Made by a program: the position numbers and the translations under genes. Source: a virus (taxonomy: Duplodnaviria > Caudoviricetes). Taken from it: a DNA stretch of 40,600 bases. The notes under the pieces are model-generated. The model searched no databases and was not told the DNA's origin. It worked only from the letters and a program-made list of their open reading frames with translations. Shown here piece by piece: positions 19,563 to 38,031 of the stretch (the first letter of the stretch is position 1; each line of letters opens with the position of its first letter). The stretch spans positions 1-40,600 of the IMG/VR virus record IMGVR_UViG_3300032253_000233. One strand, written 5' to 3'.

Positions 19563-19973
19563 TTAAAGAGTGGAAATGTTGTGAGAATGCAAGTCATTTA
19601 TGACCAAATTTTGAAGATATGCACTTCGATTACCGTTGAATTCAACTAATCTTTCAGGGAGTACTTCTAAAATATCCGTTCTCATCATGACATTGATTCT
19701 TTTTAACTTCTCAACTTTCACATTGATAAGCTGCGGCATCGCACCGGTTTCAATTTCAGTGTCACCTTCCATTAATTCTTCTAAATTTAATGCTTTTGGT
19801 AATGCTTTTAAATCTTCACAATAAAGTTCACTTGCTTCAATAATATTATGAACAGCTTCTTTAAATGTACTACCGTAGCTTGACACAAAGTTAAGATCAG
19901 GCACGACAGCGACATAATCATCACCTTCTTTATGGATGAATGCTATATATTCCATAGTTTTATTTCCTTTCAT
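19563..19973 (-). CDS. hicB: HicB family antitoxin
   Basis: 'Y.A.VPDL....S.G.T..EA..N..EA..LY' plus C-terminal RHH 'RINV...NRSAYL'. Confidence 0.93.
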   Translation of the reverse strand: MKGNKTMEYIAFIHKEGDDYVAVVPDLNFVSSYGSTFKEAVHNIIEASELYCEDLKALPKALNLEELMEGDTEIETGAMPQLINVKVEKLKRINVMMRTDILEVLPERLVEFNGNRSAYLQNLVINDLHSHNISTL

Positions 19974-19989
19974 TCATTGTAGCTAGAGA

Positions 19990-20175
19990 CTAGCGGAGTT
20001 CAATTCCGCTTTGCTTCTCTATGCTCTTGAGTGTTCCTATCGGGATATCTTTTTTCCCGTGGTCAGGAACGATAACCACCATCTCACCTTTTATGAGCTT
20101 CTTATGTGACCCTTTTTGGGACTTAAGCTCAAAACCGTTGCTCTTTAAAATCTTTAGGACTTCTTTGGCGTCCAT
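19990..20175 (-). CDS. hicA: HicA family toxin (mRNA interferase)
   Basis: 'L..NGF...SQKGSH', 'VP.H..KDIPIGTL.SI.KQSG'. Confidence 0.95.
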   Translation of the reverse strand: MDAKEVLKILKSNGFELKSQKGSHKKLIKGEMVVIVPDHGKKDIPIGTLKSIEKQSGIELR

Positions 20176-27828: not shown

Positions 27829-28587
27829 GTGAACGTACCAAAAAAAGTTAGTGACAGATTTATATCTGGTCTTCAAAAATATAAAAAGATCTTGAAAAAA
27901 GCTCAAGACAAAGACGTAAATGAGTCCGACACTGTTGTTATTATCACAGATATGCTGGAAGAGATATTTGGCTATGACAAGTATGATGAGATTACAAGTG
28001 AGTACGCTATAAAAAGCACCTTTTGCGATCTAGCCATCCTAATTGAAGATAACTTAAAGTTTTTGATCGAGGTAAAAGCAATCGGCATTAACCTCAAAGA
28101 AAACCACCTAAACCAAGCACTTGCTTATGGAGCGAAAGAAGGTCTTAGCTGGATAATCCTCACTAATGGAGTAATCTGGGAAGTGTATCATGTTGTTATG
28201 AGCCCTAAACTTGAAGCAGAGCTTTTGTATAAAATCGATCTGTTAGAACTTGACTTTAGACAGAAGGATGTAACAGAAAACCTCTTTGTCATCTCAAAAG
28301 AAGGGCAATCTAAGAATGCGATCGATGAGCTGAATGAAAAAGTCAACATAATGAACAAACATATGCTCAGTGCAGCTTTGACTGAAGACAGTGTAATAAA
28401 TGCGATCCGTTTACAATTAAACAAACTTTCCAGTATTAAAACAAACAGTGAAGACATCTTGGATATTGTTGTCAATGACATTATTAAACGTGATATTCTC
28501 GATGATGAAGCCTATAAAAAGGCAAAGTCCAAAATAAAAAGAATAAAGAACAAAGCAGCTAAAGAAAAAGAGCTGGAAGACGTTTAA
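27829..28587 (+). CDS. HsdR N-terminal-like PD-(D/E)XK nuclease domain protein
   Basis: 'NE.DT', 'EY', 'CD.A', 'IEVK', 'Q...Y', 'ILTNG..W'. AAGGA RBS with GTG start. Confidence 0.85.
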   Translation: MNVPKKVSDRFISGLQKYKKILKKAQDKDVNESDTVVIITDMLEEIFGYDKYDEITSEYAIKSTFCDLAILIEDNLKFLIEVKAIGINLKENHLNQALAYGAKEGLSWIILTNGVIWEVYHVVMSPKLEAELLYKIDLLELDFRQKDVTENLFVISKEGQSKNAIDELNEKVNIMNKHMLSAALTEDSVINAIRLQLNKLSSIKTNSEDILDIVVNDIIKRDILDDEAYKKAKSKIKRIKNKAAKEKELEDV

Positions 28588-28909: not shown

Positions 28910-29110
28910 ATGATGAGTAAAGAATTAGTATGGTTAATCAATGGTTTTTCTAATGCATTTAATGTATCTGGGAACAAATCAACAATTACAAAACATTCTA
29001 AAAAAGCAGGTACCTACTCTAAAAAGGTGTCCACTGATACTTCAAAAAACCTGCAATCTTCTGCTGTTAAAGTTGGCAATGCAATGCGTAAAGCTGTAGC
29101 TAACGCTTAA
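28910..29110 (+). CDS. Small basic protein, partner of the DUF2335 gene
   Basis: AAGGGG RBS; TAATG overlap with the next gene. Confidence 0.65.
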   Translation: MMSKELVWLINGFSNAFNVSGNKSTITKHSKKAGTYSKKVSTDTSKNLQSSAVKVGNAMRKAVANA

Positions 29111-29610
29111 TGGCTAAAAATAAACTTACAAAAAAACAGCAAACTATGAAAGCTGCAGGTAGGGTTGGTGAGCTTCATGTACTCGCAGCGCACCAACATG
29201 AACACAACCACCAACACCAACTGAACATTTCTCCATTTTTATCAGCCCATGAATTAGAAAAAATGAATGCAGTAGATCCTGCCTATGCCAATAAGATTTT
29301 TGAACTTACTAAATACCAAATTGAAGCTGACGTTGAGAATTCCAAGAAAAACATAGAATTGGAACAAAAAGAGCAGGAAATACGAGAAAAAGAAGTTATT
29401 GGAGAGATAGATCATAAAAAAAGAGGACAGTATTTTGGAGTCTATGCAATTACGTTTTTAGGACTAATAACACTTGGTTTAGTCTACTTTGAAGCATTTA
29501 AAACAGCTGCTGCCTTTGCATCTGTAACAATAGTAGGTGGAACGGTAGCCTTTACCGGCATCCCTGCTAAAAACAAAAATGAAAAAAAGGTCAAGTCAAA
29601 AGAGATCTAG
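29110..29610 (+). CDS. DUF2335-like membrane protein
   Basis: 'EL.....DP..A..IF', 'RGQ.FG' followed by two TM helices. Confidence 0.75.
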   Translation: MAKNKLTKKQQTMKAAGRVGELHVLAAHQHEHNHQHQLNISPFLSAHELEKMNAVDPAYANKIFELTKYQIEADVENSKKNIELEQKEQEIREKEVIGEIDHKKRGQYFGVYAITFLGLITLGLVYFEAFKTAAAFASVTIVGGTVAFTGIPAKNKNEKKVKSKEI

Positions 29611-29623
29611 ATTACTATTTTTC

Positions 29624-30178
29624 TCAATCAGTTCTCTTTTCTTCTTCAATCTCAACCGGTTTACCACTCCAAAACGAATCATACACATACTTAGCCTCAG
29701 TATGATACATAAACTTGATAGTATTGTAGTAGATCTTCAAAGTGTCAGGATTCACGGCATAGTAGGTAATCGTTCTCTTGTTCCAAGGAAGGTTTGAGAG
29801 TTTCATGTCCCAGATCTCATCATAAAACTTTCGCTCACGACCCTTGACCATTAAGCTGCCATTTAAGTACACGACATGACCCCATGAGTATGACCTCATT
29901 ATCTTATCTGTTCCCTCAATAAAAGCAACCATCAACGGTGCAAACATAATAAACATCCCTATCATGTAAGGATCATGCTCATGGATCATAATTTCTATAG
30001 AAATAACAATAATAAGCAGTACTATAAACCCCGTAAGTGCAATAAATCCATTGCTAAGCGTTGCCACCAATTTAATTGATTTAGGAGAAGCCTTCAACCG
30101 ACTTACAAAATTATAGGTATGGTTTATATCTCTACCTGCCTGATTATTGTAACTCCCATGCGTATACTGAGTGTCCAT
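29624..30178 (-). CDS. Two-TM membrane protein with N-terminal GxxNNQxG motif (paralog B)
   Basis: N-terminus MDTQYTHGSYNNQAGRDIN; two hydrophobic helices; clear similarity to 30180..30746. Confidence 0.85.
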   Translation of the reverse strand: MDTQYTHGSYNNQAGRDINHTYNFVSRLKASPKSIKLVATLSNGFIALTGFIVLLIIVISIEIMIHEHDPYMIGMFIMFAPLMVAFIEGTDKIMRSYSWGHVVYLNGSLMVKGRERKFYDEIWDMKLSNLPWNKRTITYYAVNPDTLKIYYNTIKFMYHTEAKYVYDSFWSGKPVEIEEEKRTD

Positions 30179-30179
30179 G

Positions 30180-30746
30180 CTACACTACCATCTCTTTCTG
30201 GTGCTTCACCATGTTTTTATATGCCGTAATTCGCTCTTCATCATTAAAAGAGTCGTACACATATTTTGCTTCTGCATTATGCATAAACTTTATTTTGCGC
30301 CCGTAAGGCTTGTGACTGTTAGGGTTAACGCCGTAAAAATGTATGATTCCATTACCGATCCAGTTCTTTTTATAGCTTAATGTCCAGATCTCTTCATAGA
30401 ATTTTCGCTCTCTGCCGTCCAACGTTATCTTTCCATCGGTGTATTTGATGTGCCAAGGAGAATATTTCAACATAAACCTTTGACTGCCCTCAATTAAAAA
30501 GATCACCAACATACCCACACTTACACTAAACAAGATTTTCAGCGTAGATGAGAACATACTGATATGAAGAAACCACCAGCTTATAAGAATTGACACGAGA
30601 TAAGCAAAACCTACTATCCAGTCATGATTAACAATAGCCTTGAGTTCTATATCTCGAGGCGAAACATTGACACTGTGAACAAGACTGCTCAGTATAGTTA
30701 GGTTCCCACCTACTTGGTTGTTCCCATGTCCGTTGATATACCTCAC
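30180..30746 (-). CDS. Two-TM membrane protein with N-terminal GxxNNQxG motif (paralog A)
   Basis: N-terminus YINGHGNNQVGGNLT; shares 'GRERKFY.EIW' and 'IKFM...EAKYVYDSF' with paralog B. Confidence 0.85.
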   Translation of the reverse strand: MRYINGHGNNQVGGNLTILSSLVHSVNVSPRDIELKAIVNHDWIVGFAYLVSILISWWFLHISMFSSTLKILFSVSVGMLVIFLIEGSQRFMLKYSPWHIKYTDGKITLDGRERKFYEEIWTLSYKKNWIGNGIIHFYGVNPNSHKPYGRKIKFMHNAEAKYVYDSFNDEERITAYKNMVKHQKEMVV

Positions 30747-30758
30747 TCAGTTGCCATC

Positions 30759-31181
30759 TTATATTTTCAGGCTTGTGACGTAGTTCAATACTTTCAATTT
30801 GTCATTTATATCAAGCCCTTTCACGATCGATGCTATCGTACCTGCGATCTGCTCGTCGACCGACGTATTATTATTATGTCCGCTGATATTTCCACCGGCT
30901 TGGTTGTTATGGTTTCCACTAAGAGTCTGACTTTGAGTGGCTGTAGTATTTACTAGCATTTCACCTTCACCCGTCAATAGCCAAGGAGTAGACACCCTAT
31001 TTTTAGCTGCAAATATTGAGATAGTTTTTGTTAGGCTATCTCCTTTTTTTCCACGGTCAATAGTACTTTGACTAACACCAAGGTCATCAACGCATTTTTG
31101 TGTACTGCTCTTTCCATACACAGCGTCTAATGCTATACCAAATCTATACCCTATAGTATTCAAAAAAAACCTTTTTTGCAT
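30759..31181 (-). CDS. CI-like HTH repressor without S24 peptidase domain
   Basis: HTH 'LGVSQSTI' and CI signature 'WLLTGEGEM'; divergent from a Cro-like gene across operators. Confidence 0.85.
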   Translation of the reverse strand: MQKRFFLNTIGYRFGIALDAVYGKSSTQKCVDDLGVSQSTIDRGKKGDSLTKTISIFAAKNRVSTPWLLTGEGEMLVNTTATQSQTLSGNHNNQAGGNISGHNNNTSVDEQIAGTIASIVKGLDINDKLKVLNYVTSLKI

Positions 31182-31185
31182 AAAA

Positions 31186-31226
31186 ATGCATTTTTGCTTG
31201 ACATAATATGCATTTTTGCATATACT
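31186..31226 (+). promoter_or_regulatory. Early promoter with two repressor operators
   Basis: TTGACA(31198-31203)-17 bp-TATACT(31221-31226). Operators ATGCATTTTTGCTT 31186-31199 and ATGCATTTTTGCAT 31208-31221. Confidence 0.85.
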
Positions 31227-31321
31227 GCCTATATTAGTTTACGTTTACACAACATAAACATTATAACAAAACGACTTTAAAAACAAAAAGGTTTATTACA
31301 AATGCAGTTTAACAACACATA

Positions 31322-31621
31322 TCATGCTTCTACGTTGAGTTTAACCTTCTTCTTACCACAGCTATCACAGAGATATGTCTTATCAACTGTACCAAAAACA
31401 TTACCATCCATAGCGGCAATCTGTTCGTCTATAAGCTTTAATGCACCGACTTCACAGTATTCACAGATCAAACCACTCGTTATAGCAGGTTGTTCAAGCT
31501 TATTTAACCGATTTTTCAATGCAGTATTCTCTCGCTCTAATGCTTCTATTCGTTCAGGTAGTGTGGAAAGAGCCTTTAAAAATTTAACATTCTTCAGGAG
31601 TTCATTTATGTCTTTAATCAA
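31322..31621 (-). CDS. Coiled-coil plus zinc-ribbon protein
   Basis: 'LPERIEALE' coil, CEYC...CDSC. AAAGGA RBS before TTG 31621. Confidence 0.7.
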   Translation of the reverse strand: MIKDINELLKNVKFLKALSTLPERIEALERENTALKNRLNKLEQPAITSGLICEYCEVGALKLIDEQIAAMDGNVFGTVDKTYLCDSCGKKKVKLNVEA

Positions 31622-31817
31622 AAGTAATCCTTTAAAAACTGATAACAAGGTAAATATTATCTTAGAAAGTGATGGGAAAAGTATTTCTCTAAAACTTGGT
31701 TCAAACCCAATTGTCATAGCAGCCATTATGAGTGTAGAACAATTAGATCAATTGCAACATGAACTAGAAAAAATATTACACAATGTTCACAATTATAACC
31801 AAAATAAGGATTCTTAG
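31608..31817 (+). CDS. Possible small protein (69 aa)
   Basis: AGGAG RBS before ATG 31608; 3' part of ORF 31302..31817. Confidence 0.4.
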   Translation: MSLIKSNPLKTDNKVNIILESDGKSISLKLGSNPIVIAAIMSVEQLDQLQHELEKILHNVHNYNQNKDS

Positions 31818-31819
31818 TC

Positions 31820-32071
31820 ATGCAGTTTAACAAGCATCTCACTCTTGGCGAGAACATAAAACTAGGTCTGTGGGCAAGAGATAAAACCGTTTATGTTGTT
31901 GCAAAAGATTTACAGACAACGGAAAATACAGTCAAAACGATCATTGCTGAAAGATTTACAAGAAAAGAAAAGATGCCACCTCTGCACAAACGTGTTTACG
32001 AGTATCTTCTTGAACACTGCGAAGGATTTGCCCAATGGGCAGAAGACAATGAGATAACCCTAGTTTCATAG
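31820..32071 (+). CDS. Cro-like HTH regulator
   Basis: 'TVYVVAKDLQTTENTVKTII'; AAGGA RBS; divergent from the repressor. Confidence 0.65.
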   Translation: MQFNKHLTLGENIKLGLWARDKTVYVVAKDLQTTENTVKTIIAERFTRKEKMPPLHKRVYEYLLEHCEGFAQWAEDNEITLVS

Positions 32072-36726: not shown

Positions 36727-37194
36727 TTGAAAATAAATATAGTAATAAGGTCATTTTTGTATACAACTATTTTAATCCTCTTCATATTCTTTGCTTCAGC
36801 TTCCGCCGAATCGTTGGCAAACAAGAACTACGGATCAGCTATTGTCTCGGAAGTTACTAGCATCTATGATGGTGATACCTTCCGAGTCAATATCAAAGAC
36901 TATCCTGACCTACTCGGCTATCGCATAGGCATCAGGGTCAATGGTATCGATACTCCGGAGATGAGAGGCCAATGCCAACAAGAGAAGGACTTAGCCCGAA
37001 AAGCAAAGCAGATCACTGTGGCAGCTCTGCGGGCTGGGAAGAAGATCGAACTCCGTAATATGCAACGTGGTAAGTACTTTCGTATCGTAGCGGATGTATA
37101 TATCGATGAGAAAAGCTTAGCTGATAATCTTATCAGATCAGGGCTCGCTGTTAAGTATAACGGCGGTACTAAAACAAAGGATTGGTGTAAATAA
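36727..37194 (+). CDS. Thermonuclease (SNase-like) with signal peptide
   Basis: 'YDGDT', 'IR..GIDTPE', 'KY.R.VA.VY', 'GLA..Y.GG'; hydrophobic leader ending ASA. Confidence 0.92.
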   Translation: MKINIVIRSFLYTTILILFIFFASASAESLANKNYGSAIVSEVTSIYDGDTFRVNIKDYPDLLGYRIGIRVNGIDTPEMRGQCQQEKDLARKAKQITVAALRAGKKIELRNMQRGKYFRIVADVYIDEKSLADNLIRSGLAVKYNGGTKTKDWCK

Positions 37195-38031
37195 ATGAGT
37201 ATTATTAAAGGCAAACATTCAAGCAAATATGGAACTACTATTTTATTTAACGATGAAGAAATTACAATTGCTAGAGGCCAGACATGGGGATACAGAGGCA
37301 GTGGACCAAGAGAACTAGCACACACCATTTTGTTGGCAGCCACTAATGACATAAATATTGCTCAAAAGCTACATTACAAATACTTTGAAAAGGTTACCAG
37401 CCATTTTCCTAAAGATAAAGAGTGGAGTCTCTCTATAGAGGAGGTCTTAGAATGGATTAAAATAAATAAAGACCAAAAAATATTTAAAGGAAGAAGGCAT
37501 CTCCTAAATAATGGAACAACTATAACCATAGATGGGGTTGACCTTCAAATACCGTCTGATTATCCAGGCGTGGGAACTATGCACACCAATGATCTTAATT
37601 ATGGGTATAACGGTCAAGGGCCCAGAGAATTAGCTATTGCTATATTATCCCATGTTCTTGATGATTATGATAGAGTTGAAGCGCTTTATAAAGATTTTGG
37701 TAGAGAAATCACACAAACCCTCCCAGACAAATGGGAACTATCTGAAGATGAAGTTTTAGATTGGGTTAATGATCGTGAAGGGGTCATACAATTGTTTTCT
37801 GCTGAAGACAATATAGTAAAAACAACATGTAAAGAGCTTGGTATAACACAGAAAGAATTAGCTGAACAAATTGGTGCAGCAGAACAGACTGTAAGAGGTT
37901 GGAGTTCAGGTAAAGACTTACCTCAATGGGCAGTGAAATCTTTTGAAATGCTTATTAAGATACACGAGCAAAATGAGCTTGTAGAAACAGTAACAAAACT
38001 TCATAAAATACTATCTAAGAGAAATAAATAA
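37195..38031 (+). CDS. Tandem DUF6166-like domains fused to C-terminal XRE HTH
   Basis: Two copies of '(W/Y)GY.G.GPRELA..IL...W.LS..EVL.W', then 'LGITQKELAEQIG'. Confidence 0.75.
   Translation: MSIIKGKHSSKYGTTILFNDEEITIARGQTWGYRGSGPRELAHTILLAATNDINIAQKLHYKYFEKVTSHFPKDKEWSLSIEEVLEWIKINKDQKIFKGRRHLLNNGTTITIDGVDLQIPSDYPGVGTMHTNDLNYGYNGQGPRELAIAILSHVLDDYDRVEALYKDFGREITQTLPDKWELSEDEVLDWVNDREGVIQLFSAEDNIVKTTCKELGITQKELAEQIGAAEQTVRGWSSGKDLPQWAVKSFEMLIKIHEQNELVETVTKLHKILSKRNK

Follow-up and report, generated by a model that had tools for sequence, protein, structure and literature searches.

The stretch of DNA analysed here (the window) is an entire 40.6-kb virus record with terminase, portal, capsid, tail, replication and integrase-like ORFs, most of them named by eye and the integrase by family search. 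Relatives point to a Campylobacterota host: a homolog of the repressor described below is annotated in an Arcobacter MAG, and partner loci were found in a Campylobacterales MAG and in the Sulfurimonas phage SNW-1. At the center of our analysis are three minus-strand genes, a repressor gene followed by those for two paralogous membrane proteins (partners A and B), with gaps of 12 nt (repressor to A) and 1 nt (A to B). One short G/N/Q-rich motif recurs in all three products. The ORF list and its translations bear out the three co-oriented, adjacent ORFs and the three motif peptides that a first-pass annotation had read from the DNA. The features are as follows, L001 and the like being numbered loci from our searches.

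30759..31181, minus strand: CI-like repressor, 140 aa, with an HTH (aa 10-70), a disordered linker (78-106) and a C-terminal helical hairpin (108-138), no S24
30882..30929, minus strand: shared G/N/Q motif, repressor aa 85-100, within the disordered linker (pattern scan, model, shuffles, head profile)
30180..30746, minus strand: membrane partner A, 188 aa, GTG start, with an N-terminal motif, two hydrophobic helices (about aa 42-89) and a C-terminal soluble domain with a bacterial PH-like lead
30696..30740, minus strand: shared motif, partner A aa 3-17 (pattern scan, shuffles)
29624..30178, minus strand: membrane partner B, 184 aa, paralog of A with the same layout (helices about aa 35-90)
30122..30169, minus strand: shared motif, partner B aa 4-19 (pattern scan, shuffles)
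31183..31226, no strand assigned: putative operator/promoter switch, with two 15-nt repeats, a palindromic core and a sigma-70 promoter, conserved in L001 and L009
31820..32071, plus strand: divergent Cro-like gene, 83 aa, named from its position; in L007 and L009, similar-looking ORFs are likewise divergent from the repressor

Read-through from the repressor into the first partner, for which the spacing is in frame in the window, L001 and L009 (12, 6 and 0 nt), was considered and rejected because two stops intervene between the repressor and A here and the other loci are out of frame. Several further genes of the window deserve mention in their own right. Two small genes converge on partner B (28910-29610, plus strand), one a basic ORF of 66 aa, the other encoding a membrane protein of 166 aa that belongs to PHROG 3996 (moron, E 1e-8) and contains a His/Gln-rich stretch. 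A nuclease-like cargo gene with HSDR_N_2 (type I restriction R N-terminus; 27829-28587, plus strand), possibly a defence gene, is kept in L009 (3693-4463), and a HicA/HicB toxin-antitoxin pair lies between the terminase and portal genes (19563-20175, minus strand). The gene of a secreted thermonuclease (SNase; 36727-37194) recurs near the immunity region in L006, L007 and L086, in L006 between repressor and partner; positions 37195-38031 encode a protein of 278 aa whose N-terminal domain is internally repeated and which ends in an HTH, and L049 has a similar one.

What kind of regulator is the repressor? It matches 0 Pfam and 0 NCBIfam families, had no match in the plasmid search and none in the phage search, and is matched weakly by PHROG repressor families (E 7e-5 to 1e-2). 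Its structural model has five helices over aa 10-70, then a linker of low confidence (78-106), in which the motif lies, and a pair of helices at the C terminus; the closest folds are 186 CI, 434 Cro and P22 c2 (E 0.05-0.3; best Foldseek E 0.046, none below 0.001). Upstream of the gene, the two 15-nt repeats, with their palindromic core and a spacing of 22 nt, straddle the -35 box of a promoter that matches sigma-70 at 11 of 12 positions and is directed away from the repressor; the repeats are conserved in L001 and L009. A 434/lambda-type HTH, a divergent cro-like gene and repeated putative operators over the opposite promoter are all present, each hit weak alone. Taken together, the weak PHROG and fold matches and the conserved operator-like repeats over an outward promoter make a CI-like switch likely, in agreement with the first-pass identification of the gene. 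That the protein lacks S24, as also proposed, is confirmed by the absence of any Pfam family and by a model consisting only of HTH, disordered linker and helical hairpin. In all three homologs of the repressor, the motif is retained while the flanking linker diverges.

A 518-nt stretch lies between the switch and the cro-like gene (31271-31833). On either side of it is a copy of a 45-nt direct repeat (73%), by which the cro start is duplicated. The stretch contains a minus-strand ORF of 134 aa (31726-31322) that has a coiled coil as well as two CxxC pairs; it is absent from L009 and looks like an inserted cargo gene that left a decoy start behind the lytic promoter.

Partners A and B share 34% identity across 166 aa (E 3e-28), and a profile search of their family returned 29 representatives of 66-236 aa, which in a 29-row alignment are 21-38% identical to B. 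The N-terminal head is G/N/Q-rich (at least 7 of 16 residues) in 27 of the 29 rows, one of the other two being without its N-terminus. Two hydrophobic helices are present in 27 of 29 members, with a median inter-helix loop of 8 residues, and the mean number of Lys/Arg residues before, between and after the helices is 2.9, 0.5 and 3.3. From the short loop and this Lys/Arg distribution, the positive-inside rule predicts that both ends of the partners are cytoplasmic, with no periplasmic sensor domain; so short a loop does not support an outward-facing receptor. For the C-terminal domain, a bacterial PH-like fold is a lead only (Atlas 0.89; TM up to 0.46), below the tool's bar, and an alignment of 4 rows gave an AlphaFold model of B with a mean pLDDT of 45, which was left out of the fold search. 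Sequence searches of PDB, PHROG and NCBIfam gave the partners no name; Pfam gave 0 families for the window partners and, among the matches listed (25 of 31 families), no curated name for the 29 members, and PADLOC models matched 0 of the 29. Longer fused forms of a partner were seen in 0 of 7,994 candidates, which is weak evidence, and the longest of the 29 representatives has 236 aa.

In a six-frame pattern scan of the 40.6 kb, the motif occurs nowhere beyond the three places. The repressor reaches local scores of 46 with head A and 43 with head B (p 0.0015 and 0.003; 2000 composition-keeping shuffles). A profile built without any repressor, from the heads of 28 membrane-family members, gives the repressor 13.0 bits and the next non-member among 109 window ORFs 2.8; applied to 437 ORFs of 60 control loci, it reaches 9.8 at best, for a protein that is itself a matched partner, and 2.9 for the next. 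Since this general head profile misses the divergent repressor motifs of L006, L011, L023 and L027, the match is locus-specific and not one universal motif. In pairs, the motif is about 14-22 aa long and disordered in the monomer model; some matched variants (L006, L011, L023) contain proline or several charged residues.

How far does this arrangement extend beyond the window? Family members were found in 6 of 401, 2 of 353 and 1 of 401 genomes of the samples searched, and scanning viral sequences with two additional sub-alignments added nothing. L002, L004, L005, L021, L024 and L087 repeat L001, and L008 repeats the window; five weak partial hits were left out (L015-L018 and L025, E about 1e-5 to 6e-4), and L003 was rejected as an unrelated GC-rich false match. 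Ten distinct loci carry a family member, two of them (L010 and L012) at the contig start, leaving eight with upstream DNA. All eight have an HTH repressor upstream on the same strand with a motif matching the head of its own partner. Repressor and partner are adjacent in six (the window, L001, L007, L009, L011 and SNW-1) and separated by one gene in two (L006 and L023), and tandem partner paralogs occur in three (the window, L007 and L009).

The repressors of these eight loci come from different families (Phage_CI_repr-like, HTH_3), and two of them (L007 and L023) contain S24, with the motif of S24-bearing repressors located between the HTH and the protease. The first-pass annotation had pointed out that the window repressor lacks S24. 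No argument that another way of induction is needed follows from this, because S24-bearing repressors carry matched motifs too, namely those of L007, L023 and the control locus L027. SNW-1, a phage of the cultured Sulfurimonas indica, has a 138-aa repressor without S24 (accessions of repressor and partner WAK43924.1 and WAK43923.1); according to the available text of the Sulfurimonas phage papers (PMC11290706, PMC11531552), its DNA was prepared after mitomycin C treatment, which says little on the induction route, no untreated control being seen there. Behind the partners, L007 (5159-6285) and L009 (2140-3332) have a gene for 277-297 aa, which by eye resembles a histidine-kinase-type ATPase, and a STAS-like gene for 98-100 aa, and SNW-1 (L086 1048-2573) has two other genes in this position, which is a variable cargo slot, probably co-transcribed with the repressor.

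Does each repressor match its own partner in particular? We scored the full repressor of each locus against each partner head, taken as 35 aa (48 for L006 and SNW-1), four of the starts being chosen by eye. Each of the 11 cognate pairs scores above composition-keeping shuffles (p 0.0005-0.018). Among 5,040 permutations over seven loci the true pairing comes first, as it does among 120 over five repressor lineages; with SNW-1 added, 2 of 40,320 permutations over eight loci reach it. On body segments, the same permutation test gives a null result (154,263 of 362,880; nine loci). The motif of four loci is of the window type, and these do not tell each other's heads apart, so that three of the eight repressors score at least as high with another locus's head; the independent units are five motif classes. 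Joint conservation and co-variation of the motif in homologous loci, on which the first-pass idea depended, thus hold in 8 of 8 assessable loci by shuffle and permutation tests. Short and compositionally biased as the motif is, with shuffled heads scoring 22-28, low-complexity G/N/Q stretches might resemble each other by chance, but the pairs above shuffles, the two permutation ranks (1 in 5,040 and 2 in 40,320) and the null body control have already largely refuted this explanation, which we consider highly improbable.

The motif goes with the partner, not with the repressor lineage. The repressors of SNW-1 and L006 are related (HTH score 163, at most 53 to others) and score 61 and 66 with their own partners, with 25 and 24 for each other's; the window repressor, unrelated to that of SNW-1 (23), scores 59 with the SNW-1 head. 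Within SNW-1, the repressor and partner motifs are identical at 12 of 14 residues. The first L007 partner groups with window A (support 100/99) and carries, ahead of its window-type unit, an extra unit (aa 2-19) that matches its own S24 repressor. This extra unit and the crossed case of SNW-1 and L006 make the motif separable from ancestry.

But could copying of DNA keep the motifs alike, with no contact between the proteins? The repressor gene would then overwrite the 5' end of the partner gene time and again, or be overwritten by it. The repressor and A share a repeat with 17 of 20 nt identical, the repressor-partner DNA of L001 is 75% identical over 32 nt, and the extra unit of the L007 partner resembles a copying event. 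The first-pass annotation had stated that codons differ between the copies, from which it argued for conservation at the peptide level. By eye, this stands well for repressor and B (another codon is used for 6 of 7 identical residues) but weakly for repressor and A (only 2 of 7); in L001, 4 of 8 identical residues differ. Against copying also speak the heads, which stay G/N/Q-rich in 27 of 29 members despite 21-38% identity, and the matches, which persist across an intervening gene in two loci and never leave the reading frame or their places in the proteins. Copying as the whole explanation is improbable in our view; as repressor and A share 17 of 20 nt, local copying may nevertheless contribute to keeping the match.

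As controls, 60 repressor- or S24-like loci were fetched and 25 tested, 21 of which had a downstream ORF in range (about 1.3 kb, which would miss partners further away). A p below 0.05 was obtained for 3 of the 21 genes: in L027 and L050, a linker motif pairs with the head of a membrane protein that belongs to a different family, and in L029 the match is HTH to HTH. Because the control yielded matched heads on other membrane families in 2 of 21 cases, we regard the pairing as uncommon and the partner body as exchangeable; L027 and L050, having been picked by the match, are kept out of the unbiased counts. Plain G/N/Q content does not separate the groups, with 6 of 16 residues in the two matched control repressors versus 6-7 of 16 in five unmatched ones. 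A near-identical 20-residue head sits on two unrelated membrane bodies, a DUF5392-like one in L027 (2259-2819) and one of the partner family in P0017, and for this reason the motif reads as a portable module. The S24 control search gave about one hit per genome, and 2 of its 30 loci entered the pair test, one of which looks like a chromosomal LexA-like gene. S24 matches are present in 219 of 250 genomes of one host family, the example examined being an HTH plus S24 gene (L044, L057), and these hosts may have a LexA-like regulator.

Among known systems, the bacterial amyloid-signalling gene pairs come to mind first. Membership in RHIM/BASS3 did not hold up: the central Gly-hydrophobic-Gln-hydrophobic-Gly signature is absent, the residues before the central Gln being Asn-Asn in all three copies. 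The likeness in gene order and motif placement did, the upstream product having its motif after a domain and the downstream product at its N terminus, as in BASS and Bab/Agp. BASS pairs, as described in the available text of the preprint (10.1101/2020.01.06.895854), are adjacent collinear genes with tiny gaps and a short G/N/Q/V/I-rich motif, which one product carries at its N terminus and the other behind its functional domain, cognate copies being more alike. Here too, the motif is common to the products of adjacent, collinear, close genes (6 of 8 loci, the other two with one gene between), its composition, length and gene syntax agree with these descriptions, and cognate copies co-vary. Unlike BASS1-10, the system has no NB-ARC/NACHT receptor and no Bell, hydrolase, TIR, CHAT or cyclase effector (0 Pfam, 0 NCBIfam); its members are a small two-helix membrane protein and a phage repressor, and its hosts are unicellular Campylobacterota. 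The partners' motif is N-terminal and that of the repressor internal, lying behind the HTH and ahead of the hairpin or S24. The words 'repressor', 'HTH' and 'phage' occur 0 times in the text of the BASS preprint (10.1101/2020.01.06.895854).

Bab/Agp, the antiphage system BASS11, is presented in the available text of its preprint (10.1101/2024.11.07.622273) as a prophage-borne pair with a motif of about 20 aa in common, placed after the domain of the effector and N-terminally on the sensor, a 1094-aa TPR-GreA/B-PIN protein; the output is cell death. The inferred sensor is here a membrane protein and the inferred output transcriptional, and Pfam and PADLOC reveal neither a TPR-GreA/B-C-PIN sensor nor a Bell-like effector, the partners being two-helix proteins of 184-188 aa. 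'Repressor', 'HTH' and 'lysogen' occur 0 times in that preprint (10.1101/2024.11.07.622273). A second precedent is offered by EADs, in the available text of PMC7159879 and PMC8195603 small folded domains of NTPase conflict systems; copies on neighbouring genes resemble each other more than they do other copies, and homotypic coupling of the proteins, without amyloid, is proposed there. Matching copies on adjacent genes and proposed homotypic coupling are found here as well, with a short disordered motif in place of small folded domains. Pfam gave no EAD for the window proteins and none for the 29 members among the matches listed (25 of 31 families); the L023 repressor linker matches EAD10 with E 0.0017 and 18.8 bits, below the cut-off of 24.1. 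A motif shared by a repressor and a membrane protein was not found in the literature searched, of which motif logos and supplements may list HTH-linked motifs; 'repressor' occurs 0 times in the available text of two BASS preprints, PMC12261475, the EAD papers and the Sulfurimonas phage papers (PMC11290706, PMC11531552).

What, then, might the matching serve? We regard the pairing as real and co-evolving, and infer the mechanism. The co-variation suggests homotypic binding, and at the level of sequence such contact is quite probably the best explanation for a short, disordered, non-catalytic motif that co-varies between otherwise unrelated neighbours. More tentatively, and by analogy, membrane sensors might stack their motif with that of the repressor, so that operator binding is lost and the prophage induced, which we hold possible rather than probable, though likelier than any of its rivals. 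The partners would be cytoplasm-facing membrane sensors, and a membrane disturbance or an incoming-phage protein, sensed through the membrane helices or through the PH-like domain, would be the trigger. Clustered sensors would stack their motif with that of the repressor into a small amyloid-like assembly; the repressor would be pulled off its operators, releasing the lytic promoter and inducing the prophage. The two paralogs would provide two inputs into one repressor, and this route would stand beside RecA cleavage, not replace it. The sensor role is given to the membrane protein because the N-terminal motif is on the templating sensor in BASS and Bab/Agp, and the cross-beta form and the sensor-to-effector direction would likewise be as in those gene pairs; direction and outcome, induction, are thus proposed by analogy alone. 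A bolder reading is an amyloid switch of lysogeny in temperate phages, in which interchangeable membrane sensors would template the repressor motif into a self-propagating cross-beta state, giving DNA-damage-independent and possibly heritable induction. We put its probability at about 0.35.

The direction might also be the reverse. The membrane protein would then be an effector of toxicity or exclusion, either restrained or set off by the repressor, and a disturbed repressor pool (through an anti-repressor or a superinfecting relative) would lead to abortive infection. In lambda, rexA and rexB behind cI are an exclusion system, and RexB is a membrane protein. As far as the available texts of the literature searched go, characterised amyloid-signalling pairs end in membrane damage and cell death, and the YgfX/CptA membrane toxin family is a weak structural neighbour of the partners (TM 0.39, under the bar). 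However, the N-terminal motif marks the sensor's side in BASS and Bab/Agp pairs, PADLOC matches none of the 29 members, and varied inputs account better than a single killer for tandem paralogs that diverge and partner families that are interchangeable; we consider a reversed direction unlikely on balance. The lambda genes differ in further respects. In the available text of 10.1101/2021.04.19.439022, RexA binds CI and favours the lytic state, and RexB modulates; as here, the genes are expressed with the repressor, but the CI binder is the soluble RexA and no motif in common is described. No sequence link of the partner family to Rex proteins was found in Pfam, PHROG, NCBIfam or PADLOC.

Nor does a homotypic contact have to be amyloid, as co-variation demonstrates matching and not polymerisation. 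A finite beta-strand or beta-coil contact could park the repressor at the membrane, buffer its level and stabilise lysogeny or tune the decision at infection. EADs are proposed as homotypic adaptors without amyloid (available text of PMC7159879 and PMC8195603), and proline or several charged residues in some matched variants (L006, L011, L023) would suit such a tether; a motif of only about 14-22 aa, disordered in the monomer model and with a residue bias as reported for BASS, argues against it and makes it rather unlikely in our estimation.

Prophage induction, where studied, nearly always proceeds via DNA damage and RecA, according to the available text of PMC10432266. Induction by membrane stress has been reported with little molecular detail (available text of PMC13760530, in which 'amyloid' and 'sequest' occur 0 times). 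With a motif co-varying in repressor and membrane protein, there is a tangible connection, open to mutation, between the membrane and the lysis-lysogeny switch, and SNW-1 of the cultured Sulfurimonas indica provides a testable example. If the contact is a plain tether, the membrane proteins would still be a class of repressor partner that we did not find described in the literature searched. If it is amyloid, the system would be the first amyloid switch with a transcription factor as its effector, and amyloid signalling would extend from cell-death effectors to gene regulation.
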